From Catajapyx aquilonaris (lineage: Eukaryota): 59,286 nucleotides of DNA. This document shows positions 5,016 to 48,706 of this stretch, piece by piece (the first letter of the stretch is position 1; each line of letters opens with the position of its first letter). The notes beneath the pieces were generated by a model. The model was not told the DNA's origin and searched no databases. It saw only the letters and a list, made by a program, of their open reading frames with translations. The translations under genes and the position numbers were made by a program. The stretch covers positions 1 to 59,286 of the forward strand of contig JYFJ02002321.1 of assembly GCA_000934665.2 (NCBI GenBank), in the 5' to 3' direction.

Positions 5016-6959
5016 TCATTTCCAGACATTAATCAATTTTGATCGAAAGCGCACGATTTCACCAATGAAACTGACGATGCTGGAGCCCAAAAGGACGGAG
5101 AGAAGCACGAAGGAGCCTTTCATCTGTCGCAGGTGCAGGGCCATGGAATAGGCGTAGAGGCGATTCTCTTTCCTGGCGTCCTTGAGTCCCATCATGAAAA
5201 AGGCGTGCAAGAACTGGCGCATGTAGTGGTCGTAAATGCCCGCTTCGGAGATGTACATCTGCATCCTGGCAATGGCAGGACCAATGGGCGCGTATTTCGG
5301 GAACCCAATTCCGCAAATGATCCGAAGGGAGTTGTCGTCGGCGATTTCCACCGGCAGCTTCCCCTCTTTGTCCACCTGCTGGTATGCCATGGCCTTCAGC
5401 AACTCGTCCACGGCCATGCAGCTGAAGTCCTCGTTGATGGTCCTCATCAGACAGGCCTTCATGTCCCCGCCGTTCTGAAGATTTGGCTTGATCTCGTGGT
5501 GGTAAGGTACCTCCGAGTCTGTTATGAACATGTCCATGAAAGGCTTGACCCAGTCCAGAGCACCCCACTGCCACCCATGCCAGTACACCATCTGTCGCAG
5601 GTCGTTAGGCAGAGATTCCATCTGAGGCGAGACCAGAAACCCGAAGAACTTGGCCTCGTAACCGCATATGATGACGTCGCATGCTATCCACCAAAACGCG
5701 ATCAGAACTCTCAGGGAGTGGGCTGTAGGCATCAGGTTGGGATTCTCCTCGATCAGGGCTGAGAAGACGCATCTGAGGGAATACAAGCCGAAGGACGAAG
5801 GCGGTTCGCCGTTGAAGGAAGGGGCGATCGAACCGTGCAGCTTCAGCATGATAAACAATATTACACTTATGAGTGTCGCCGCTGCGAATATGGCAGCCCA
5901 CATCCCTTTGGTGAAGGGCAATGCGATGGAGTAGAAGGAGAAGAGCCGACGTGGCGTCCGTCTCATGAAAGTGGTCTGCGCCTCGTAAAAGTTGAAAGGG
6001 ATGTCCACCACCCGGACGATGTCTGTCCTGGACATCCCGGAACCGATGTCCACTTCCCTCCTGATCATCTGTCCGGCCATCCCGGTGAAGTTCCCGTCCG
6101 GAAGCGCGATTTCCTGGTACTTCCCCGGTATTTCTGGAGGGGTGTCGATGTGCCAGTCGAAGTTCAACTGCTGTCCGGAGTCGGCGTACATCCGCAGGTA
6201 CGGATAAACGGGCAATCCGCTCTCCAGCATGAATTTGAGCTCATCCGGAGACGCGCCCAGTGGGAAGGTTCCGTTCAGATGTCTCCCATGAAAATCCAAG
6301 GTGAAGTCCGGATACAGCTCCAGATCCGCCGGATTCAAGCCTCTTGCTCCGTATTGACCTCGTCGAACCACTTTCGGGTTCCCTCCGTCGCAAAAGAGGC
6401 AGTTGTTTCTTATGACCAACTTTCCTGATTCAGATTGGTCGTAGTCAAGTGCCAGCTGGTACAGGAAGTTGTAATTCGGATTGAGCATCACGGGCTGGGC
6501 GTCCGAGTCGCGACTGATGTACACGAACCGGTCACGTCTCGGGTTCATCCTCACCAGGCTGGCGACGTACCTGATCAGAGGCGCAAAGTTGTCATTCTTG
6601 AACATCAGTACAAACAGGGCGTGGTTGCTGAGATGGCGAGACGATGGTCTTTCCAGCCACGAGAAAAAGTATTCAAAGTCTCCCGGTCCGGTGTTCCTGA
6701 AAGGTCTGGGTTCAGGAGTCGATGACGTCCACTTGACGACGGCTACCGAACCACCAGAGCTGATCGTTGCGTTCACCATGGCAGCCACGGACCTCGGAGT
6801 CACGTCGTAATCGTGACCAATCACTAGTAGACAGTCACTCAGCTCGCGATGCACCATTCCTATAAACGAGGCGACAAATCCCTCTTGCTGCTGGTTTGCT
6901 TGAAGATGAATCGCGCTGGCCACCAACGAGAGCGACAACAATGCAGGGACAGCAAACAT
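5016..6959 (-). CDS. Divergent ionotropic receptor (IR, iGluR-related chemoreceptor), single exon, 647 aa
   Basis: Signal-peptide-like N-terminus; S1-like GNFTGMAGQMIRREVDIG; pre-M1 PFTKGMWAAIF; M2/M3 region LRVLIAFWWIACDVIICGYEAKFFGFLVSP; S2 end GIGFPKYAPIGPAIARMQMYISEAGI; terminal TM ALHLRQMKGSFVLL. No introns. Confidence 0.9.
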   Translation of the reverse strand: MFAVPALLSLSLVASAIHLQANQQQEGFVASFIGMVHRELSDCLLVIGHDYDVTPRSVAAMVNATISSGGSVAVVKWTSSTPEPRPFRNTGPGDFEYFFSWLERPSSRHLSNHALFVLMFKNDNFAPLIRYVASLVRMNPRRDRFVYISRDSDAQPVMLNPNYNFLYQLALDYDQSESGKLVIRNNCLFCDGGNPKVVRRGQYGARGLNPADLELYPDFTLDFHGRHLNGTFPLGASPDELKFMLESGLPVYPYLRMYADSGQQLNFDWHIDTPPEIPGKYQEIALPDGNFTGMAGQMIRREVDIGSGMSRTDIVRVVDIPFNFYEAQTTFMRRTPRRLFSFYSIALPFTKGMWAAIFAAATLISVILFIMLKLHGSIAPSFNGEPPSSFGLYSLRCVFSALIEENPNLMPTAHSLRVLIAFWWIACDVIICGYEAKFFGFLVSPQMESLPNDLRQMVYWHGWQWGALDWVKPFMDMFITDSEVPYHHEIKPNLQNGGDMKACLMRTINEDFSCMAVDELLKAMAYQQVDKEGKLPVEIADDNSLRIICGIGFPKYAPIGPAIARMQMYISEAGIYDHYMRQFLHAFFMMGLKDARKENRLYAYSMALHLRQMKGSFVLLSVLLGSSIVSFIGEIVRFRSKLINVWK

Positions 6960-7710
6960 GTTTGCAAGATTAGCTTATGACGTCTTGGTCAAGTACGTAT
7001 TTTCCATCGAATGTCGTGTGCGATAAGCCTACAAGCCGTAACATATGAAGATTTATCTGTGATCTCTATGCGTGTAGAAATGCTGATGCACTATCGGTTT
7101 GGGTGGAATTACAGTAAAGCTGTGTTGTTAGTTTTCTAGACTCTAGACAGTCTAGAGAATGACTTCAAGGTCGTTTCAGCGACAATGTACGTGTCAATCC
7201 ACCTCAATAAGCATGGATTACTTTGACGGCAATGCCTTATCAGTGCTGATTGAAGTAAAGCACATGCCTGTGCTATTCTTTTCCATGAATGATCGACTTC
7301 AAAGGAAGAGGATATCTCGTCAGGTATATGGGAATAACAGTGGTTTTTGCATTATTGAATACCCGTATGTCAAAAGAGACGGATAAAAATGAGGCCCTCG
7401 ATTTGCCTCGCTCCTACAACTTACACGTTATCAGCTGTCATGACAAGCAGGTAAGAATCGCCTGACGACAACCTGTATACCTGATGTAGGTGCTTATTGT
7501 ATCTATACCCAGTTCAGAGACAGTCCATCATGCATAGACTACTTTTCATTGACTCAGGGATTGGACAACAGTCCATGCCTTCATTTTAATAATGTCTTGC
7601 CATTTTGAATTTTCAGAAAATATACCAGCTGCAATTTTTACACTGATGGAAATATCATTCTCCCTAGAGCAGTATAGTCTATCTATACTGTTCATTATAC
7701 GGCAAGGTGA

Positions 7711-22507: not shown

Positions 22508-23827
22508 ATCAATTATCCTTATAGAGAGCCTTGGGAGCCCGTTCGTAAGTCAGTCGGGTTGTTCGTAAACTGGGGGCTTCTTGTATTACATTCTGTGGTA
22601 AAGAATGAATTCCCATGTGACATTTCAAATAGTTTGACTGACTAAAACTTTTCTGGCACACCTAACAAATGAATGGATTTTCTCCCGTATGAGTTTGCAT
22701 GTGTTTCTTCAAAGCCTCTGAACGTCTAAAACTTTTCTGACACACCTCACAAATGAATGGCATTTCTCCCGTATGGATTCGCATGTGTTTCTTCTTAGCC
22801 TCTGAACGTCTAAAACTTTTCTGACACACCTCACAAACGAATGGCTTTTCTCCCGTATGAATTCGCATGTGCAGTTTCAAACTGCATGGATCCCTGACAC
22901 CTTTCTGGCACACGTCACAAATGAATGGCTTTTCTCCCGTATGAGTTCGCATGTGCTTTTTCAACGTCCCTGAACTACTAAAACTCTTCTGACACACCTC
23001 ACATACAAATGAATGGCTTTTCTCCCGTATGTGTTCGCATGTGGGTTTTCAAACTGCCTGAATGGCTCAATCTCTTCTGGCATACCTCACAATGAAATGG
23101 TCTCTCTGCGGTATGACTTCGCATGTGACATTTCAAATGGTTTGACTTATTAAAACTTTTCTGGCAAACATCACAAATGAATTGATTTTCTCCAGTATGA
23201 ATTCGCATGTGCTGTTTCAAACAACTTTGAGTAAGAAATTTGTTCTTGCACACCTCACAGTGAAATGGTCTCTCTCCTGTATGAGTTAGCATGTGAATTT
23301 TCAAATAATTTGTACGCTGCAATGTCTTCAGGCAAATATGGCAACGATGCTTTTCACTGTGAATTTCCAATTCATGCAGAGTACCACACAATTTCTGGCA
23401 TACTCTGCATGCATGTGGATTTCCTGTAGTGCTTCTTTTGTCCTGGGTTCCGCCCTTTCCTACTCCATCGTCAGCAGTCTGTTGCACAATCTGAAACGTG
23501 AATCATCAGTGCACAATTTATATGGCAATTACATCATGATTACATTAATCCTTCTGGATCCAGTTGCTAATGGGTCGTCTTCATCTTTGACCACAGTGGA
23601 TGTTGCCACCACCATCTCTTCCTCCTCCTCCGCGGCCTCCTCCTTGATCTCACGCAGCGTGTCTTCTGTGAAGAGTGTAGCGTCCCCGTGGAAGCATGCC
23701 GGGGTCTCCTCCTTGAGTCGCAGCCTCCAGGTCTCCTCCACCGTCACGTCTCCTTCCTCCAGCTCTCCTCCACCGTCACGTCTCCTTCCTCCAGCTCCTC
23801 CTCCTTCTTCACCACCAACGAGGTCAT
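22508..23827 (-). pseudogene. C2H2 zinc finger pseudogene (acidic first exon + ~9-finger exon)
   Basis: Exon 1 23827-23544 (MTSLVVKKEEE..IKEE..VKDEDDPLA) is broken by a 32-bp tandem duplication (23732-23795). The finger exon from 23490 has HTGEKPF-type linkers, a 4-nt insertion near 23003 and an in-frame TAG at 22662-22664. Confidence 0.85.
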
Positions 23828-26682: not shown

Positions 26683-27007
26683 GCAATTCACGGAGAGCGT
26701 TACGACGTATAAAACGTATTGTAAGGAAATTGTGATTATTAAATGCTAAAATGTATAAATAATGGGTCCACATTTTTGTGCCATTATTTCCCCACTATTT
26801 CAGCAATATATTGTGCACATTATTGTTACAATAATAAAAGTCATTTATTGTAGGTGTGACAACAATGGAACTGTAATGCAGGGAATACAGTAGAACAGTT
26901 CTTTGAGAGCCAGCGACTCGAACGCGTCCCAAACAGCTGAGCAAAAATGGCCGCCTTTTGAGTAGGAAGCAGCCTTTTTGTGGTACTTTCCTCTGGTTGA
27001 TTTGGAC

Positions 27008-27808
27008 ATGGATGCTGGACCGGTGCAGGAGGATGGCCTGATCCATCCGGATGAGATGAAGATTGAAATCAAGATTGAGGAGGAGGAGGAAATGTATGAT
27101 TATGATCAGCTGGGCGGTGCGGCTGAATCAGGTGATCAAGATCAGGTGAGATTGTCTCTTGCGCTGAAGATTGACTGTCATAATTAATTAAAATTTTTTT
27201 GCTCTAGGCCATTCAAGATCATGATCAGATGAACCTGTCACCAGCACGCAGCGGGACGGACTCGGAGTTAGACGAGGTGAAGATTGAGGTTACGGAAGAG
27301 GAGGAAGAGCAGATATTTGCTGATCCTCTGAATGTTGATTACAGCAGTTTAACAAGTGATCAAGTTCAGGTGAGTGCATCACCATAACCCTGGAACCGTG
27401 ACGTGGGGTCTTTTAAAGGAATTAAAGTGCAATGATAATTACAATGAATTTTTGCCGTTTAAAAAAGTATATAACAGGAAGTGCATATTTATTTTGAATT
27501 AGCGATCATTTTAGGCATTGTTCAAAGAATAATTGCAAATAGTGTATTTGATAACTGATGCCGATTAGATCAAATTGTGAGCCACCACAGATAAGTCCAT
27601 TTGAGCTTATGATGTGTGTATGATGAAGGGACCATAGGTTACCATAATTACTAATAGCCTTGCTCAAAATTGTTTCAGATTTTAACACCACCGCTATCAA
27701 ATGTCGTTGATTAACTCTAATTCACATTTAAGGGTGTGCAACATGAATCTGGTGAGGGTTTGAAGAAGGCAGTCCCTGTGCAAGAAAGGAGGAAGTCAGC
27801 TAAACGAG
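27008..27808 (+). CDS. Cassette copy 6: acidic exons and start of the former zinc finger exon (finger array lost)
   Basis: Exons 27008-27145, 27208-27369 and from 27733, co-linear with copy 7 (30803). The finger exon is interrupted by a hairpin at ~27842 and truncated after EKCFSCPVCQE at ~28005. Confidence 0.7.
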
Positions 27809-27841
27809 GTAATTTGAGGAAAGGCCTGCAGACATGCACAG

Positions 27842-27966
27842 CGCTGCCGTCGGATGTAAGAAGAACGTAACTCGAAAACTTTGAAGGGTGAATGTCGCAT
27901 GGCATGAATGCGACTTTCACCCCTTTTAGTTTTTGAGTTACGGTCTTCTTACATCTGACGGCAGGG
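27842..27966. mobile_element. ~125-bp hairpin insertion in the first zinc finger linker
   Basis: ctgccgtcggatgtaagaagaacgtaactcgaaaac / gtttttgagttacggtcttcttacatctgacggcag arms. Removal restores ACA GCG GAG AAG TGC TTC, matching ACA GTG GAG AAG CGC TTT in copy 7. Confidence 0.8.
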
Positions 27967-28005
27967 CGGAGAAGTGCTTCAGTTGCCCTGTTTGTCAGGA
28001 AAACG

Positions 28006-30540
28006 AGGTGAAATTGTGCCACTGTTGTTTTATGTCATTTCATTGATTTTCATGTGTTGCAGTGACGGGAAGAGTTTACCAGAAGAAGATCGATGGGAGG
28101 CCTTATAAAAACTGGTCAGAAGACACTTTAGAACTGGCTTTAGAAGAAATCAAGGCTAAAAAGATCTCGCTTCGGGAAGCAGCGGTTAAGTAAGTGCAGG
28201 TTAAATGCTTTCCTTTTTGTTTTGACTTACAAAATATGAGCATGTTTGTTATGTATTTCGATTGTAGTGTAACATTTGCCACTTCTTCTGTAGTGTTTAT
28301 GTGACCAATTTGGTGTCTTTTCTCCAGATATGGAATCCACCGAAATACTCTAAACAACAGACTACATGGGCGATGTACAAGGAAGACAGGTGGGCAGACA
28401 GCACTTTCAGCTGACGAGGAGAAGATAATTGTGTCACATGTGATCACATTATCAACTTTCGGCTTCCCTGTTACTGCTCTTGATCTGCGCTTATTCATAA
28501 AATCTTACCTTACAAGGATAGATCGTACAGTAAAACAGTTTAACAACAACTTACCTGGAAAGGAATGGGCTACTCTGTTTCTCAAGAGGCATGAAAAAGA
28601 ATTAACCGCTAGAGTGCCTCAGGTCATTTCGCGCTCACGAGCTGCTCTTGATAGCACATATATCGATGACTTTTTTGATGTTATTGTGAAGGAGCTTGAG
28701 GGAATCCCCCCTGATAACATTTGGAACTATGATGAGTCCAATCTTCAGGACAATCCTGGCTTAAAGAAATTTATAGTGAAGAGGGGTGTTAAACATCCTG
28801 AAATGATAAAAAACTCCACAAAAGTGTCAATGTCCGTCATGATGTGTGGGAATGCAGCAGGAAGTTTGGCTCCCCTTTACGTTACCTATCAGGCAGAGAG
28901 TTTGTACAACTGCTGGATGGAAGGCGGGCCTCCGGGAACACGTTATAACCGATCAAGAAGCGGTTGGTTTGACGCTGCAGTGTTTGAAGATTGGTTTGAG
29001 TTCCTATTGCTGCCGATTTTGAAGAAACAGACCGGCCAAAAGGTGTTGGTCGGGGACAATCTAAGCTCCCACCTTAACTATCATGTGATTTCCCTTTGCC
29101 ATGAGAATAACGTAAAGTTTATAGCCCTTCCACCTCACTCAACGTGTTTGCAACCACTGGGTGTGGCCTTTTCTCGCCACATGAAAGGGGCATGGAAGTC
29201 TATTTTGACACGATGGAAGAAAACAGACGAAGGAATTAAAAAGCCGACCCTTCCCAAGACTGTATTCCCTCGTTTGCTAAATGATTTGATGGTGAAGTTG
29301 CTAGACAGAAGTTCTGCAAATTTGATATATGGATTCCAAACTTGTGGAATTTATCCGCAGGATCGAACAGTTATTCAAAATAAACTGTGCAACAGTGTCA
29401 GTGAATCATCAGGTAACCACGTTCAAAATGTAAGTGAGGCTTTTTTGGATGAAATGAGCAGAAAAACCTGCTCAACACTAGGGAGGAAAAGGAAAAAAGT
29501 GAATGTGCCGCCAGGTAAAGGCATTACAGCCGAAGATGTAGCACCACTATCATCTGAACAATCTCAACCCTCCACTTCGAAGAAGAGCAACTCTAAAAAA
29601 CATCCACCGACAGGAAAAGACACTAGGAAGAAGAAAAAGCATTTGAACCACTTTGAAGACTTTTCAGATGATGAGTTTGAGTTCCCATGTGCGGATGTGG
29701 GTGCACTAATGAATTTCCTGCAAGATGACGTTGGGGATCCACCAGCAGTTGAGAATGGATAACACCTCCAACCCATGAGTGCCATTGAAGAACTTAAACC
29801 AAACCATGGCCAACAGGAATGAACCAACTTACCAGTGGAGCAAGGACTGATGGACAGTGATATCGGTATTACCGAAGAACCAACAGTTGCTGTCTAATAT
29901 GGCGGATGTTTGTACAGTATTCAGGAAATTTTTTGACAATATTGGATGAGACAGGTGAGGCCAACTATTTCGGACGGACACACACACAAAAAAAGGGAAA
30001 ATACATAAAAGATCTAGTGAAAAGGAATATAATTCCATTTTTAAAAAGTGGTAGTAACGTCCTCATAGTAGGCATGAACCCAGCATGAACCATTAGATTT
30101 CAAAGTTTTGCTGACTTTTTTGCATTTAATTTTTACCCATGTAGCCATCTTCATAGGTTTCCACAATTTCTATTGCCTTCAGTTAGTAGCATTGTTAATA
30201 TTTCGTTTCAAATTGTTGTCAGTTCCTATATTTTGTTCTCGTACCATTGTCCGTTCCGTAAAGGTTGTTAAAAGTTTATTTCATTGTTGATTCCTTAATA
30301 AAATTAAATGAAGTGTCTTGAATTATTATCATTGTCGTACCGGTCGTACTACCTATCCTCAATATTTTAAAACAATATTTTTTTCTTCTTCGTATTTTTC
30401 TTTAACAATTTTTTTTTCATGCTGATGATGCTCATTTTTTCTACAGGAAGACTGGTGAGAATGTGCCAAAAACGCAATTTCTCTTCATTTCAAGCTAGTC
30501 TGGCACAATCTCACCCCACTCGATGGGATGATGTGCTACA
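28006..30540 (+). mobile_element. Truncated pogo-like transposon body
   Basis: Subterminal-type motif gtga(a/g)a(t/a)tgtgcca at ~28008 and ~30455, and inverted (tggcacaatctcac) at 30501; TA|CAGGAAGACTGGTGAGAATGTGCCA end-like fragment at ~30444. No intact TIR pair found, so boundaries are approximate. Confidence 0.55.
28063..29762 (+). CDS. pogo/Tigger-family (HTH_psq + CENP-B HTH + DDE_1) transposase, own start lost, catalytic Asp mutated
   Basis: Exon 28063-28189 (ACG in place of ATG, GRVYQKK..YKNWSEDTLELALEEIKAKKISLREAAVK); intron GTAAGT..TCTCCAG; exon 28328-29762 (YGIHRNTL, FGFP, PGKEW, WNYDES, LVGDNLSSH, and LQPLGVAF where QPLDV is expected). Confidence 0.9.
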
Positions 30541-30802
30541 AAGAAAATAATGTCTCCCCTCTCTTTAGCATGTAATACATCTTTATTTGAAAAAATATAT
30601 ACAGTGTTTCGTTTATTCAAATAATTACCTACTGTATCGGAGAATACGGTAGATTTCACTGTGAACTGTTCATTCTGCCAGCGACTCGAACGCACCCCCA
30701 AACAGCTGAGCAAAGATGGCCGCCGTCTCCTCTTTGGAGTGAGATCATCTTAGCCGCTTTTGTCGTCTTCTCCTGGTTGATTGCGGTTGAGTGTGATCGG
30801 AC

Positions 30803-32605
30803 ATGGATGCTGAGCCGGTGCAGGAGGATGCCTTGCTTCATCCGAAAGCGGAAATCAAGATGGAGGAGGAAGAACTGTATGATTATGATCAGCTGGGCCT
30901 AGGAGGTGGAACTGAATCAGATGATCAAGATCAGGTGGGACTGTCTGTTGCGCTGAAGAGCTGCAATTATTGAGTGTCATAAATTTTTTATTCTAGCCCA
31001 TGCAAAGTCATGATCTGATGCTACCGTCACCAGCACACAGCGGGACGGACTTAGATGAGGTGAAGATTGAAGTTCGGGAAGAGGAGGAAGAGCTGATATG
31101 TGATGATCCGCTGAATGTTGACTATTGTAATCAGGTTCAGGTGAGTGCATCACAAGGAGAAGGGGAAGAGAGAAGGAGTCGTAAAGGACTTGGGTCACTG
31201 TAATGCCTTTTGAGAAATCAGTATGTTATGAAATTATGCCATATATTCAATTTGACAGAAAGTTGTTGTACAGTACCTGATACATCAAATTTCTGGAGAT
31301 TAAAAAGGGAGCATGGTGGCCATTTTAAAAATGTGACCATAAAGTAGCATAATAATTGCTGAGGCACATCATTTACCGCCAAAAGCGAAAACACAGTAAC
31401 TCCGTAGAAAAGGAGTGAGACTAAAGCTGCGTTTACATGTGAGCAATTTGACGAGTGAAATCTTCGCCGAGGCTGATTTTCGCCTCAAATTGGCTGAGAT
31501 TTTGCTCGTCAAATCGCTCACATGTAAATAGAGCTTTAGTCTCATTGCTTGCCTATGGAGTTACTCTCTTTCGCTTTTTGCGGCAGACATGTACTCGTCT
31601 GTTCAATGTATCCCGGAGTCCTAATGAACTCCCCTCCTTGTGCTGGGGCACGGCACTGACCTTGGTTCCCAGCCATGAATCATCATTTAACACTGCCTGT
31701 ATCAAAATGTCAATGATGAGCTTCGATTCATCTTTAAGGGTGCACAACAGCAAGCTGATGAGAATTTGAAGAAGACAGTCCATGTGCAAATAAGCAGGAG
31801 AGAGTCTACTCAGCCAGATAATTTGAAGGAAGGTCTGCAGCCACACACAGTGGAGAAGCGCTTTAAAAAATGTAGTCAAGCATGTGAAGTTGAAATTCAT
31901 ATGATAACACATGCTGCGGAAAAACCATTTAGTTGTCATTATTGCCAGGAAAAATTTAACCAGGAAGGTGATATGAAAACTCACATGAGGACGCACACTG
32001 AGGAAAAACCATTTAGTTGCCCTCTTTGCAATAAAAAATTTAGTCGACCACACGATGTTAAAATTCATATGAGAACGCATACTGGGGAAAAACCATATAG
32101 TTGTTATATTTGTCAGAAGAAATTTAGCCACACTGGTAATATGAATATCCACATGAAAACACATACTGGGGAAAAGCCATTTAGTTGTCACTTTTGCCGG
32201 AAAAAATTTATCCAGGAGGCTCACATGAAAGCTCACCTGACGACGCACACTGGGGAAAAACCGTATAGTTGTCATTTTTGCCAGAAAAGATTTAGTCAAG
32301 AAAAAGGTGTTAAAACTCACCTGAGAACCCACACTGGGGAAAAACCATATAGTTGTCACCTTTGCAATAAAAAATTTAGCCAGATTGGTCATGTGAAATC
32401 TCACCTGAAGATACATACTGGGGAAAAACCATTTAGTTGTCATGTTTGCCAGAAAAGATTTACTGAAGAAAATAGTATTAAGACTCACATGAGAACCCAT
32501 ACTGGAGAAAAACCATATACTTGTCACCTTTGCAATAAAAAATTTAGCCAGCTAGGTCATGCGAAAGCTCACCTGAAGACACATACTGAGGAAAAAAACA
32601 TGTAG
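30803..32605 (+). CDS. Cassette copy 7: intact acidic-exon C2H2 zinc finger protein, 8 fingers, predicted 380 aa
   Basis: Phase-0 exons 30803-30934, 30997-31140, 31739-32605; highly homogeneous HTGEKP(F/Y)SCHxC repeats. Confidence 0.9.
31425..31535. mobile_element. Harbinger-like MITE in intron (related copy at ~11597-11735)
   Basis: agctgcgtttacatgtgagcaatttgacgag / ctcgtcaaatcgctcacatgtaaatagagct termini, flanked by TAA/TTA. Confidence 0.7.
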
Positions 32606-33130
32606 TTGCCCGTTGAAAGACAAACTTTAGTCACACATGTGATATTTTAAATTCAAATGAGAACACCAACTGGTGAAAAACCATAAGGATACCAATGCTT
32701 GCCGGCAGTGAGATAATTTTTTAAACCTCGTGTATTTTAACACATGAAATGGAAAGTGGCAGAAAAGAAAGAAAAATCACATGAAAACTCACACTGGTGT
32801 GAAACCACAGAGTTTCCATATTTGCCAGAGAAGATTTAGTGTGTCAGGGAGTCTAAAAATTCATATCCAAACCCACACTCAGAGACCATTTGACTCCAGC
32901 AATACTTGCCAGAAAAGGTTTGCCCACAGAAGTAATGGATAACTCATACATATTGACATTCCAATGGCACCAATTAGGTGCATCAGTAGCATCACTAACA
33001 ATTTAGACGTTGTGTAAAATGAGGATCAGCTTGGGAAATATGTACGTAACTTTACTATTTGGGGAAGCACAGTAATTTTGGCCAACAAAATGATCTTGAG
33101 AATTTAAAAAAAAAAAAAGTCACTGTAAGG

Positions 33131-37858: not shown

Positions 37859-40739
37859 ATGTCATCTAAAATTCCATCTGCCAATGGGAAGGCCACGTGC
37901 TGGGAGGAGCTGGACCTGATGTCGGTTGTTGAACTCTCGCTTCAAGGAAGGTACTGTAAACCGAACGAAATTTATTGCTTTTTTATTTTTGAAAAATTCG
38001 GTTTTAGAGGTCGGTTTTTTTTATATCGCACTCGTGATCTAGACGCAACGTACTGTGTTATTGTGGTCTCGTGAATGTTACGGCAACAGTGACATAACAG
38101 TTAAAGCCCACGCAAACAGATTTTTGTGTGTGAATTGGTCAAATATTTACAACATCGATCTATAATTATTAAGCAAGAGTCAAATACATTCTGATATTGC
38201 TTGCTGGATGAGATTTGTGTACGTTGATGTGTTCATTTAAGAGTGGGAATTGCCTCCTATTTTCATTACGCATATTTTCAATTACGTATTAATTGTTTGT
38301 AAAAAAAAAGAGTGGAAATGGTGTCTCGTTGCGACCAATGAGCTCTCGTCGTTTTTTTTGTTTGTTTGAAAAATGTACTAAAGTTGTGAGGTATAATTTT
38401 CATGTCTTTTTGCACATTTTTGTCCGGAAAGTACACTTACTCATCAATAGTCTTTTTTTGTCACTGTGATTTTATTAGAATGGAAGGGAATCAGGGGGAA
38501 AACCACCCAACAGCTGTGCAGACGTTTGACCCAAAATTCTTTAGCCTATATTTGTGTCACTGCAGGAACCTCCTGGACATGGACGTGTTCTCAAAGTCCG
38601 ATCCTGTGTGCATAGTGTACCACCAGCCTTTCGGACAGACCCAATGGAAGGAGCTGACAAGGACCGAGTGCATCATCAACACGCTGAACCCCGATTGGCA
38701 GACCAAGGTGACCATCACATACCGGTTTGAGGAGCTGCAGATTCTCAAGTTCGACCTGTACGACTTGGACAGCGACAGTCCGGACCTGTCCCGACACGAC
38801 TTCCTGGGTACGGCCGAGTGTACCCTGAGCCGCATGGTGACCGCTGGAGTGCTGGTCCTGCAGCTGAAGAACCCGAAGCTGGGGTTGTACGACGGTGCGG
38901 CCGGTTCGTTGGTCATTACCTGCGAGGAGATGGGTTCGTCCAAGGATGACGTGGAGCTCAGGTTTGCCGGACGAGGCATCGACCAAAAGGAGGTGTCCTG
39001 CTGGGGGTCGTCGGTCAGTCCCTTCCTGGCCATACTCAAAGGGAACGAGTCCAGCCAGTACACCCTGGTCAGGCGAACCGACCCGGCCAAACGGAGCTGC
39101 AATCCAAACTGGAAGATGATGACCATACCGGTACGAAGCCTGTGCAACGGAGACTACGAGCGGCCTCTGAAGGTCGAGTGTTACCACTGGAAACGAAACG
39201 GAAACCACCGGTACATCGGAGAGTTCCACGTCACCCTCTTGCGTCTCGCACTCGGACCTGGATCCAACAACATCTTCCACGTCGTTGATCCAAAGAAACA
39301 GGTTCGTTATCAGCATAATAAATAAATAAATGGGCTCTTTCTACAGAATAATTGGTACACGAATGGAAATTCACACCAACAGCAACAAGTGGAAAGTAAT
39401 TTTTTTCCTAATAGGCTTATTCTCTCCGTCGGATGTTTGTCCGACCTGCTAGTATCGCTATTTCTCGCACGACCTGAGAGTGGCGGGAGTGTGCGCCATC
39501 TGTGACTGTAGAACTGTACTACGTGGTAAATCGGCGGGCCATCTCATTAAATTGGTTAATTGTCACTGTGATACTGATTATTATAGGTTTTGCCCAATTT
39601 TGGCAACAGGTTTATGATATGCCAGTTGACTTATTATTTTGTGCTTCCAGGGTAAATCAGGGTACACCCACTCGGGCGTGGTGCACCTGACGCACTTCAA
39701 TCTGCAGCCCAAGTACTCTTTCTTGGATTACGTCAGAGGCGGTACACAGATCAACTGCACCTTTGCCATCGATTTTACATGTTAGTGACTGACATCTTTT
39801 CTTCCTAGCAGGGAGACATTTTGCTGATAACTGATCTGTGTTGTTGTTTATCAGCATCGAATGGCGACCCGTTGGACCCAGCATCGTTGCATTACATCCA
39901 CCCTACCTTGCTGAACACATACGAGAAGGCCCTGTGCGCTGTAGGTGAGATCATCCAGGACTACGATTCGGACAAGCTCTTCCCGGTGCTTGGGTTCGGT
40001 GCCCGGATACCACCGGACGGACGGGTGAACCACGAGTTCTTCGTCAACATGAACCCGGAGTCTCCATACTGCGACAGGATCCAAGGAGTTCTCAAGGCCT
40101 ACAGACTCTGCATCAGGCAGATCAAGCTGCACGGGCCTACAAACTTCTCTCCAGTCATAAACCATGTGTCCAGGATAGCGTCCAACGTCACAGACGGATC
40201 AGAGTACTTCATACTGCTCATCATAACCGACGGCATCATCAACGACATGGAGATGACCAAGGAGGTACAGTACATACACATGATGTAGCAGGTCATTTTG
40301 CCATAGAACGTACGGCTCTGTTTCTGTCCGTTCGTGACCGGTACACATTTTGCACGAAAATATTTACTTCGTTATACAAGAGTAAAAACTCTGTAATTTC
40401 CAGGCCATAGTGAAGGCATCGGTGCTTCCACTGTCCATCATCATAATCGGAGTCGGCAGCACGGATTTTACGGCCATGGAAGAGCTGGACGGAGACATTG
40501 TGCCCATTTCGTACAGGGGAAAGAAAGTGGCCCGAGACATAGTTCAGTTCGTGCCCTTCCGAAACTTCGAGCAGAACTACGAAGGTCAAGCGGTCAGGCG
40601 TCGGCTGGCCAAAGAGGTGCTGCAGGAGATACCTGACCAGTTCCTCAGCTACATGAAGTCCATGAACATCAAGCCCAAACCACCTACATACAAGCCGGTC
40701 GTGCTGCCCCCTGACCCGGAGGTCATCGTGCTCGGGTGA
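37859..40739 (+). CDS. Copine (C2A-C2B-vWA), predicted 567 aa
   Basis: Exons 37859-37950, 38566-39301, 39651-39780, 39855-40264, 40404-40739 join in frame. Motifs VELSLQGRNLLDMDVFSKSDP, YSFLDYVRGG..AIDFTSSNGDP, DYDSDKLFPVLGFGA, GPTNFSPVI, ITDG, RDIVQFVPF. Confidence 0.95.
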
Positions 40740-45845: not shown

Positions 45846-48706
45846 CTATTTAGGCAGTAGTGGCTCCAATGGGATATACAGGTCTCTGCACAAGGTGGAA
45901 TACGACATTGGCATTTGCTTCCCACCATCCTGTGATCTGCAGGAAGATCTTGCCTCATAGTCCAAGGCAATTGTTCGAACCACTTGGGTCATCACTTGTT
46001 GGTACTCGAGACCACTGGATCTCCTCATGATGGAGCACAGGGCCTGGATGAAGACGGAACCTCCTCCTTCATCTCTAAATGAGCGGTATCCAAGCATTGT
46101 AGCAAATGTGACGTGCAAGTCTGGTTGCGTGAATTGCAAGATGGTGCCATTATAGCCGGCTGTGGTGGACAAAGGACCAATATCATGTGGCTCAGGAAAC
46201 TGGGAGGTCTCATAGGTTGGTTGGAAATCAACGTTGCCATGTGCTACCAACTGTCCCTGGTCTACAGCACTTCCGCGACAAGCCTGCGTAAAAAAGAGAA
46301 GCCTTATTTCATCATCATCAGCAAGACACTGTAAAAGTAGGGTAACTCTGTGATATAAATTCTACACAGGTAATGCATAACATGGAGTGTAAGTAGACTT
46401 CTCTTACATGATAAGCCTCTCTCTAATCCTTTCAAATGCCTTGCAGGACATCACTTACCTGGATTAAGAATAGCTTGGGTTTCCCTGCTAGCGTTGGGCA
46501 GAGATGATCCGCAAATGGCACCCAGAGCTCCTCCGGCCTGTACACTCCGTCACTAGCACAGAGCCAGTCTTCTGCACCATGTGTAAGGACAACCACTACT
46601 AGCAAGTCATAGGACGAATGGTCATCGAGCGACTCTGTGGGTGACGAGGAATATGTGGCATGTGAGTAAACGAGCCACTGAACTTCATTGTGCTTCCAAG
46701 CTCGTAACGCAGCACCTTCTAATGCCACCCACTGCCCAAACGTGATAACTTGGGGAAGTAAGGTGCAGCGTTATCATCTCTATATATAAGAGCAATACCT
46801 GTCAGAAGTGCATCTGAGATCCATTCACGGTCCATGTTGTTAAGGATTTGTATGTTCATTCTCATGCTCTTGAATAGCTTTTGTAATGCGACCACATCTG
46901 CTCTTGATTCTCGCTGATCAAAAGTGTTGTTGATGATCAGAGCCTTTCCTCTCCTCTTGCCCGGGGCTAGGTCTCTCATATGGTAGGGAGAGAAGTCGAG
47001 GCATTTGTCTTCCCTCTGAGCACTTTCTTTTTCCACTATTGGTGCCTTTGTATTGTTTCTGGACCTGTCTGCATAAGCATATAGACATTATGTTATGCCC
47101 TTGTTGGACTAGTTCTGCATTTATTAGCACCAGTAATGCTTTAAGTTGCACATAATTGTGACGGATTGTAGACAACTATAATACCTCGAATTGGCCCAGT
47201 AATGTGTCGCCTGCCTTTATTGTTTAATTTTATTGTTGAAAGTCACTTGTTGCCATTGGGGCATCAGTACCAAAGTACTGTTGACGCTATTATAAACAGC
47301 TTTTGGTCACTAAACTGCATGCATTTACATTTTTATTGGGCCTCTTATCCTTTTGTGTTCTGGAGGCAGGTACAATAGGAAAGTCTTTTTCGCTAGGAGG
47401 ACAGTGGCACTAATTCAAGTACGTATATTTCACAGGTCATCAGTAGCGACTCACTTTTCTTCTGGCGAGAATTGCTCGATGTTGACAACAGGCACAGCCT
47501 CTTCCACACAGAAACATTTCGACGCTCTGGATGAACCACCTGTTAATGAGTAATGAGTAAGTTGAGTTTAAATATAGTTAAGTCCGTCAAGAAGCAGCAG
47601 ATGAAAACATACACAAGAAGTACCTTGCATGCATCCAGATTCTAGTAAGAGATTTGCACAAATAGTAATCACACACAAGAACACTTGGGTAATTAATTTC
47701 ATCTTCATTTAATTTTTTTTGCAGGGAGAAATGTCTCAAAAGCAATACAAGGAAAGAGTAGGAAAGAAAATAGAGCTCTAATTTGTATAACAATAACTTC
47801 ACCTTGTGTTCTTGTGTTGTGATTTGACTTGTGTTTTCTGGTTCCATGCAGTATTTTTCTATGGACACTGCTGTATTTGTCACGACCAACTCTTCTGTAT
47901 TGTTTGGTTACCGGGCATATGTGAGGTGAGGTGAGGGAGGGCATAAATGACGGATGATAATTTTTGTAAAGGGGCCAATATAGCAGTTTGCGTCATGCCC
48001 ACATTTGATATGTTATCGCCATAGCAAACTGAAACTGGGCTATGTCGCACTTTTTTGAAATACTGTGCAACATCTGGTGTAGACTTTGAACACTTTTTAT
48101 TCGTGGGATTATTTTGAAGGTCATAATAAGTTACTCAAATAAATTAGGGTGTGCATGCAAGTGTGACTTGCAAAGAAGGGGCACTGTTTTTCAAAAGCCT
48201 TTCACTATGACCCACTCTGGTCAACTTTGGAACCTTCTCCCATGATTGTATTATTTGCCAGAAAATATTTAATGGCCTACTACTTGAATTTTTAATCAGT
48301 TTTTTGTGGTTCATTTTGAGAGTCACTGATATATAGGGAGACAGTTATACTGGTATTTTCCAGATAATTCTACCTTATCATCATGATAATAACTAGCGAA
48401 ATATGTTCTCGGTATTGGACTAGTGGAATGTTAATGGTTTTCCCCATATGCGTACATAGACAGTATTGGACATAAGGCCATTTATTTTTTGTAGGCTATT
48501 ATATCCAACAGCACTGGCTATGCCTGCAAGTAAATCACTACCTTAATAACAGCTACTTATCTGGTATAATATGCTAATAGTTCATCCACTGTGTTATCAG
48601 GACTTGATTAATGTACAAAGGAAAGTGAAAATATCGTTTGAATTATTTAAAAGTAATATCATGTATCTAGAGTTGAATATGATCTTACCTCGGCCTTACT
48701 AGTCAT
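45846..48706 (-). CDS. Short-prodomain caspase A, catalytic dyad intact, predicted 328 aa
   Basis: Exons 48706-48689, 47539-47455, 47068-46799, 46634-46459, 46283-45846 join in frame. Motifs RRGKALIINN, VLTHG, LAGKPKLFLIQ|ACRG, SFR..GSVFIQALC, KQMP..STL. The first two exons are less certain. Confidence 0.88.

Follow-up and report, generated by a model that had tools for sequence, protein, structure and literature searches.

A pogo transposon within a tandem zinc-finger gene of Catajapyx aquilonaris and a candidate host-transposase fusion

A zinc-finger gene without its fingers and the transposon within it

The contig JYFJ02002321.1 of Catajapyx aquilonaris (assembly GCA_000934665.2), whose full length of 59,286 nucleotides (nt) is referred to here as the window, carries a tandem family of C2H2 zinc-finger (ZNF) genes on the plus strand between about 16.6 and 32.6 kb. 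Within the finger exon of one of these genes, copy 6, a DNA transposon of the pogo superfamily (approximately 2.5 kb, about 27995-30528) is oriented in the sense direction, and its transposase frame of 519 codons is transcribed with its own intron removed. A first-pass annotation had read the locus as a host-transposase fusion, in which acidic ZNF exons are spliced in frame to a transposase that has lost catalysis. Every sequence statement of that annotation was confirmed, and the fusion reading itself, of KRABINER type and at an early stage, is credible and unproven.

Public sequencing data on the window come from a single run of unrecorded kind, X1, and from none that is registered as RNA; X1 consists of contigs, in which 0.27 of the sampled words are present. 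Both joints that X1 lists on this stretch are removals of GT..AG introns, and the run therefore behaves as RNA-derived. The summed depth of its contigs cannot rank genes, and the contigs cannot show transcript starts. Members of the ZNF family share a layout of two short acidic N-terminal exons with a recurring LDEVKIE..EEEE motif, followed by a last exon that encodes the fingers. The features of copy 6 and of its closest paralogue, copy 7, are as follows (a slash within a splice site marks the exon border).

16672, 20922, 24128 (variant), 26909 and 30677, plus strand: five copies of a 16-nt motif shared by the ZNF copies
26909-26924, plus strand: the copy of this motif that belongs to copy 6; an X1 contig begins just downstream, at 26955
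27008-27145, plus strand: coding exon 1 of copy 6, 46 amino acids (aa), acidic, with the donor CAG/GTGAGA
27208-27369, plus strand: exon 2 of copy 6, 54 aa, with the family motif LDEVKIE...EEEEE
27733-27808, plus strand: "exon 3" of copy 6, the start of the former finger exon, with a cryptic phase-1 donor GAG/GTAATT at 27808/27809
27826-27982, no strand assigned: hairpin in the finger exon of copy 6 that resembles a miniature inverted-repeat transposable element (MITE), with 75-nt arms that are 79% complementary
27966-27992, plus strand: last remnant of the first zinc finger, reading ..EKCFSCPV.., by alignment with copy 7 (weak in tblastn, E>=4)
30677-32605, plus strand: the intact paralogue copy 7, comprising the motif, the first two exons and, at 31691-32605, the finger exon

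In each copy the 16-nt motif precedes the ZNF start codon by about 85-125 nt, and it probably serves the tandem family as a common core-promoter or transcription-start element. A 177-nt X1 contig (26955-27131) with 0 differences covers copy 6 from the 5' leader into exon 1, and this presence of exon 1 among RNA-like contigs indicates that the ZNF promoter is active. Copies 6 (from 26909) and 7 (from 30677) form the only close pair in the family, with aligned nucleotide identities of 111/126 in exon 1, 126/143 in exon 2 and 46/58 in intron 1. Arrays of zf-C2H2 are recognised in copy 5 (E=4.5e-43) and copy 7 (E=4.2e-34). The finger array of copy 6 is gone, as the annotation had claimed: when the finger open reading frame (ORF) of copy 7 is compared with positions 26900-30700, only the pre-finger linker is matched (27700-27831, E=3.9e-7), with all remaining matches at E>=4, and what survives is this linker and one Cys pair. 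If copy 6 is read without further splicing, the host frame ends at a stop (27868-27870) that lies within the hairpin.

Two side observations concern the same family. In copy 7, coding similarity to fingers runs on for approximately 330 nt beyond the stop codon (32606-32936), and its array may have been shortened by a premature stop. A finger array of the family is also present on the minus strand (22581-23502), together with an acidic N-terminal motif at about 23604-23684, which means that the orientation of the ZNF cluster is not uniform.

The transposon in the copy 6 finger exon contributes the following features.

28007-28021, plus strand: core of the left terminal inverted repeat (TIR), a 15-nt inverted repeat with 30501-30515 (14/15); its outer half is unrecognisable
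28061-28062, plus strand: predicted acceptor AG, TTGCAG/TG, located inside the transposon and separated from the former start codon by 2 nt (TG, 28063-28064)
28063-28189, plus strand: transposase exon A, the N-terminal half of HTH_psq, with ACG at 28065-28067 instead of ATG
28190-28327, plus strand: intron belonging to the transposase, 138 nt with GT..AG borders, spliced out in an X1 contig of 170 nt
28328-29762, plus strand: transposase exon B, which encodes the remaining DNA-binding region, the DDE_1 core and a tail of basic composition; stop at 29760-29762
29492-29493, plus strand: extra A in an A-run of a 735-nt X1 contig of depth 4.72, which may be an error
30501-30528, minus strand: right TIR of about 28 nt, up to 30528, with an extra inverted copy of its core at 30454-30468

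The 3' part of the locus had been assigned to a pogo-type transposase lacking its start codon and third catalytic Asp, and both the assignment and the two losses stand. Domain scans with Pfam were run exon by exon, with the parts of the chimera kept separate. The ORF at 28305-29762 matches DDE_1 (PF03184) with E=1e-15 and 58.2 bits against a cut-off of 22. Exon A by itself matches positions 1-23 of the 45 of HTH_psq at E=0.016 and 15.3 bits, which is under the cut-off of 20.4, and the domain is split by the intron; across the junction of exons A and B the alignment continues in relatives that carry PF05225. At E<=0.001 there are 448 homologues, mostly proteins of 560-680 aa that combine HTH_psq with DDE_1 and stem from insects, Hydra, a tunicate and many contigs of about 3 kb, the best at 60% identity. 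No protein above 64% identity was found in the collections searched (best 60% in the search near the full length, 64% in that at shorter lengths), and a scan of metagenome contigs found no close locus.

Sequence columns were counted in an alignment with 120 relatives, in which a column is called conserved when at least 90% of the sequences agree (n=106). The first catalytic Asp (D1, GAT at 28731-28733) is present in 119/120 relatives and the second (D2, GAC at 29055-29057) in 120/120, and both are retained here. The third (D3) is Asp in 120/120 relatives and Gly in the window (GGT at 29160-29162); the spacing from D2 to D3 is 34 here versus 35 in 120/120 relatives, and a deletion of 1 residue lies at the Cys codon 29145-29147. 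At the column of the start codon, 97/120 relatives have Met, 19 a gap and 4 another residue, and the start M-P-R-x-Y-x-R-K of the relatives is represented in the window by T-G-R-V-Y-Q-K-K. Upstream of the transposase ORF there are a 4-codon in-frame upstream ORF from 28032 and an out-of-frame ATG at 28052, which, together with the loss of the ATG, leaves no standalone translation of the transposase by normal scanning. The frame itself is still open over its 519 codons, with neither stop nor frameshift. The intron at 28190-28327 may be a feature of the subfamily, as is suggested by P0001 and P0002, the nearest relatives and transposon-like, whose ORFs begin at the same point.

Many relatives carry a C-terminal domain, none of which is detectable in the window copy. 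Using four relatives as queries, tblastn finds nothing past 29747; a hidden Markov model of the C-termini of 87 relatives touches only about 11 residues of the window; and the frame after 29760 holds 4 stops in 80 codons, as in random sequence. The idea that this domain had decayed in place past the stop was dropped, as several relatives likewise lack it. No Pfam match was obtained in the minus-strand and downstream ORFs of the region.

For the ends of the element, the DNA of relatives was taken from metagenome contigs, among which 380 stretches fit a pattern, 146 encode a relative and 80 loci were kept (L001-L080); TIRs were searched in 10 of the 80, picked for flanking room on both sides. 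Several of these have near-perfect TIRs of 27-31 nt with the form TACCGT...GGGGTGAYTTTG..CC. The 15-nt inverted repeat of the window brackets the ORF and would be weak evidence alone, since about 0.2 such pairs are estimated by chance in 3.2 kb. Its left copy matches the TIR of L001 at 18/22 positions and its right copy that of L006 at 20/22, the latter also aligning with the TIRs of L008, L010 and L022; as both cores align with TIRs of relatives, the element is a real transposon. No TA target-site duplication is seen at either inferred end; the placement of the ends carries an uncertainty of about 5 nt, and the element borders on a deletion. Between the right TIR and the motif of copy 7 lie 160 nt that have no match elsewhere in the window.

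The sense orientation of the transposase within a ZNF gene devoid of fingers, in line with the annotation, follows from the homology between copies 6 and 7, which spans exons 1-3 and ends just before the left TIR, with the transposase on the same strand. Given that the finger array is lost and the outer left TIR unrecognisable, at least one deletion or rearrangement has occurred; it eliminated the fingers and probably also the outer part of the left TIR. From the damaged TIR, the lost ATG and the lost D3 we infer an element that can no longer move, being disabled at its ends as well as in its own enzyme.

Among the metagenome loci, L001, L008, L010, L017, L022 and L023 are full-length, with near-perfect TIRs of 27-31 nt and the common core GGGGTGAYTTTG, and look like intact elements of the clade. 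The ends of L010 suggest a TA duplication beside CAGTACCGT.

The predicted splice path and the transcripts that bear on it

The annotation had proposed that five exons (27008-27145, 27208-27369, 27733-27808, 28063-28189 and 28328-29762) join into one uninterrupted reading frame. They sum to 1938 nt and encode 645 aa followed by a stop; all four introns are GT/AG, and the exons end in phases 0, 0, 1, 2 and 0. The donor at 27808/27809 had been described as absent from the paralogue, and at the aligned site copy 6 indeed reads GAG/GTAATT versus CCAGATAAT in copy 7, the sole copy that can be aligned at this position; an A/G difference creates the donor. The acceptor is likewise where it had been placed, with TTGCAG/TG at 28062/28063 followed by ACG at 28065-28067. 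Upstream of the transposase, the frame is open to 28047 and preceded by an in-frame TGA (28044-28046), which makes the AG at 28061-28062 the sole usable one and requires a donor in phase 1. The hairpin falls entirely within the proposed intron of 254 nt (27809-28062) and would be removed with it, as had also been stated; this intron has a predicted fold of -119.4 kcal/mol (z=-12.3).

The position of the acceptor directly before the start of the transposase can be compared with that in relatives. Of 39 distinct relatives, 8 have an acceptor-like site no more than 15 nt from the ATG, versus a frequency of 10.6% at random positions (p=0.05). That an in-frame path exists is by itself unremarkable, and the position of the acceptor adds marginal weight to it. 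Three loci that had been considered as cases of a non-ATG start combined with an acceptor (L050, L059 and L009) were rejected as artefacts of start extrapolation: L059 and L009 have an ATG at the next codon, and in L050 an in-frame ATG is found 8 codons upstream.

The host part of the chimera has 34 Asp and Glu versus 11 Lys and Arg over 125 aa, and no Pfam domain is found in the host exons at E<=1. Strongly acidic composition is more typical of activation regions. The suggestion of the annotation that the product represses transposable elements finds no support in such a part, and labels such as "transcription factor" or "repressor" are speculation.

Within the transposase, transcription is documented by a 170-nt X1 contig in which 28114-28189 is joined to 28328-28421, with the intron out and 0 differences, and by contigs at 29021-29171 and 29350-30083. 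A 950-nt contig contains the joint of exons 1 and 2 of copy 7 (30932 to 30995).

Taken together, the locus is tentatively read as follows, with a probability of roughly 0.45. Transcripts from the ZNF promoter would run on into the transposon, and in a fraction of them the cryptic donor at 27808 would be joined to the acceptor that the transposon supplies at 28062, which removes the hairpin. The product would be an in-frame protein of 645 aa, composed of an acidic ZNF front of 125 aa, the helix-turn-helix (HTH) DNA-binding region of pogo and a dead DDE core. The locus would then represent a proto-fusion, raw material like that behind KRABINER, and not an established gene; selection is not part of this claim. 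The most plausible activity of such a protein, should it be produced, would be to bind TIR-like sites of the transposon family and leave them uncut.

Decay, constraint and competing explanations

The window transposase deviates from consensus at 13/106 conserved columns, which ranks it 5th of 121 sequences (median 2.9%). Nine of these deviations are private, in that the six nearest relatives all keep the consensus, and 5/9 lie within residues 315-332, near the lost Asp. In relative-rate comparisons its unique changes are about twice as numerous as those of P0001 and P0002 (e.g. 63 vs 26, p=9e-5; p<0.05 in 6/8 trios). When compared with P0003, a fusion-type gene of Halyomorpha, 0/4 trios are significant. 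By region, for the window versus P0001 with P0007 as the outgroup, and with small counts and trios that are not independent, the unique changes are distributed as follows.

DNA-binding part: 7 (window) vs 6 (P0001), p=1.0
DDE core: 23 (window) vs 11 (P0001), p=0.058
C-terminal part: 21 (window) vs 9 (P0001), p=0.043

Other trios are less clean, and in some of them the DNA-binding part is accelerated as well (10 vs 3; 14 vs 6). Conserved columns have changed at 0/17 positions of the DNA-binding part versus 10/74 of the DDE core (Fisher p=0.20). The annotation had predicted that the HTH is kept and catalysis lost: the direction of the differences agrees with this prediction, and the contrast is weak, given the Fisher test and the small regional counts. 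The pattern would be consistent with constraint that is relaxed most clearly outside the DNA-binding region, which is not decisive. Under a rough neutral model, with a divergence of about 3% estimated from the excess changes, 519 codons stay free of stops with P~0.11; with an assumed indel rate added, the joint probability that they are also free of frameshifts would fall to P~0.003. This may be read as a hint that the transposase frame is being kept. Part of the excess changes may be older than the insertion.

Several observations weigh against the proto-fusion reading. The evidence on the predicted chimera comes from a single locus in a single genome. Exon 3 contains 11 GT dinucleotides, 4 of them in phase 1, and the two at 27751 and 27808 each fit 7/9 consensus positions, so that an in-frame path is roughly a one-in-a-few event and not rare. 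Competing acceptor-like sites at 27930, 27938 and 27999 have 15-16 pyrimidines in 20 versus 13/20 at 28062, and would yield out-of-frame products. The enrichment of acceptors near the ATG was 5/28 relatives (p=0.18) before start positions were corrected and is marginal. In X1, no contig lies on exons 2-3 of copy 6 (bins 27196-27369 and 27544-27891), none extends to 28063 from the right, and the joint from 27808 to 28063 is not listed; with exons 2-3 uncovered, X1 neither supports nor refutes the fusion. The extra A behind 29492 would close the frame 88 codons before its stop. Finally, copy 6 has been hit by two distinct lesions, one being the MITE and the other the transposon along with its deletion, which is also what one would see in a plain pseudogene.

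The alternative that survives best, doubtful as it is, holds that the locus is plain wreckage, namely a ZNF pseudogene with a decaying, immobile pogo copy that yields no chimera of 645 aa in meaningful amounts. Its in-frame path would be coincidental, and the transposase RNA would arise by read-through or from the element's own promoter. The splice-site statistics, the missing joint, the MITE and the deletion listed above all fit this explanation, as does the possibility of a frameshift allele in one X1 contig. The 13 deviating conserved columns, the doubled rate relative to P0001 and P0002, the damaged left TIR and the missing target-site duplication add to it. It is opposed by the open frame of 519 codons with its low joint probability in the rough neutral model, by the intact state of all four splice-site pairs and of the host start codon, and by the host promoter, which is still active.

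An established fusion gene, in which the acidic ZNF module is joined to a pogo DNA-binding region kept by purifying selection and the protein acts as a sequence-specific regulator at pogo-derived sites, is unlikely. In its favour, the frame has remained open despite accelerated change, and in the trio tabulated above the acceleration is concentrated outside the DNA-binding region, and within that region no conserved column has changed; the five unique changes around the lost Asp are clustered, the overall rate equals that of the Halyomorpha gene, and POGK, POGZ and KRABINER provide precedents. This pattern is nevertheless non-significant in the Fisher test, and some of the non-independent trios show acceleration in the DNA-binding region itself. 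The restriction to one locus in one genome, the joint that X1 does not list, the possible truncating variant in one X1 contig and a host part with no known effector domain further reduce the case.

Self-expression of the transposon, whereby a transcript starts inside the element and a dead transposase is translated from the ACG or an internal Met with no host part, is very improbable: ACG can act as a weak start codon and has a favourable context here, with G at both -3 and +4, and the summed depth of the transposase contigs is at least that of the exon 1 contig (a measure that does not rank genes), but only 44-70 nt, depending on the placement of the damaged left end, separate this end from the ORF, this interval contains two upstream ATGs, and the first in-frame Met lies past the DNA-binding region.

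Known fusions, related genes and other features of the window

In tetrapods, the fusion of host genes with transposases is documented as a source of new transcription factors, and very young cases, which show the order of steps from insertion through splicing and loss of mobility to loss of the parental domain, are rare. The KRABINER gene of vespertilionid bats joins ZNF112 to the mariner transposon Mlmar1 (Cosby et al., 10.1101/2020.05.07.082677). As described there, it resembles the present locus in that a DNA transposon lies within a gene of a ZNF family and the fingers are replaced by the transposase DNA-binding domain, a replacement that is predicted here. The two differ in the element (mariner versus pogo), the host (tetrapod versus arthropod) and the N-terminal module (KRAB versus an acidic region with no known domain); in addition, the donor is here a cryptic site in the former last exon and the fusion transcript is a prediction.

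The chimeric vertebrate genes POGK and POGZ derive from pogo transposases of the Passer family (Gao et al. 2020, PMC7386202). In the account of this source, they share with the predicted chimera a pogo transposase (DDE_1) that follows N-terminal host domains, and the triad of POGK is partly lost (DN35D). In contrast to the single locus in one genome considered here, they are old, conserved in many species and have Ka/Ks values well below 1. Moreover, the window copy has lost D3 (DD34G) and carries a motif of HTH_psq type, whereas theirs are BrkDBD/HTH_Tnp_Tc5. A DD35D spacing is reported for the Passer and Fot-like pogo families (PMC7386202, PMC9976928). Autonomous DD35D pogo elements, like the loci L001-L080, share with the window element the combination of HTH and DDE_1, short TIRs and a length of about 2.5-3 kb. 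The window element differs from them by its missing ATG, its DD34G triad, its damaged left TIR and the lack of a TA duplication.

Two predicted gene models in insects are close relatives of the window transposase, namely LOC106679171 of Halyomorpha halys (57% identity), with seven predicted isoforms (P0003 and P0241-P0246) that differ only in their N-terminal exons, and LOC115456161 X2 of Manduca sexta (P0101, 49%). In both, alternatively spliced acidic N-terminal exons are joined at or next to the first residue of the transposase, which is not Met, and the models look like independent host-transposase fusions. P0003 has kept its third Asp, unlike the window copy, and evolves at a similar rate. 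A common origin of the Halyomorpha N-terminal extension and the ZNF exons of the window was considered and is unsupported (E=0.25 and 3.6). As there is no significant N-terminal similarity between P0003 and the window, the N-terminal sequences are taken as unrelated and the events look independent. A literature search, which was not exhaustive, found no report of a ZNF-pogo fusion in crustaceans.

At this one locus a transposon has entered a ZNF gene in the sense direction, the fingers have gone, an acceptor is available at the start of the transposase, the start codon and one catalytic Asp have been lost, a TIR has decayed and transcription continues; the locus may show the earliest steps of transposase capture. 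Should both a chimeric mRNA and constraint prove true, the mechanism of KRABINER type would extend to arthropods and to the pogo superfamily, providing a testable model of how ZNF families exchange DNA-binding modules; if they are not confirmed, the locus is no more than a dead paralogue that contains an ordinary dead transposon. A fusion near its birth, in which the acidic module of a fast-evolving tandem ZNF family took the HTH of pogo in place of its fingers and selection keeps the 645-aa frame and the DNA-binding region while the catalytic site and the ends decay, is rather improbable. If this were true, pogo TIR-like sites across the genome would be the targets of the protein, and together with the Halyomorpha and Manduca models the locus would suggest a clade of pogo elements that was repeatedly captured via a site at the start codon.

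Several minor features concern repeats and neighbouring genes. The X1 bin over the 3' half of the copy 6 hairpin (27892-28065) has a summed contig depth of 17.7, as for a repeat. A second MITE-like hairpin is present in intron 2 of copy 7 (31380-31580), where an overlapping X1 bin reaches a depth of 87.7. The high depth over both bins means that these repeats are transcribed somewhere, and both hairpins would form long stems of double-stranded RNA in the pre-mRNA. Part of intron 2 of copy 6 (27370-27543) has an X1 depth of 31.9 along with a rearranged joint and loose ends, and is probably another dispersed repeat. Known RNA families gave no match at E<=0.1 between 26000 and 32000.

Outside the ZNF family, four further coding features were recognised.

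5016-6974, minus strand: single-exon ORF of a ligand-gated channel (ionotropic-receptor-like), 652 aa
8311-9141, minus strand: weak ZAD-like ORF with C2H2, under the Pfam cut-off
38390-39325, plus strand: copine exon, whose top matches are crustacean, with the best score to a copepod protein
45846-46361, minus strand: caspase exon

The top identities of the copine exon are approximately 50-51% and include a decapod copine-8 and metagenome contigs.

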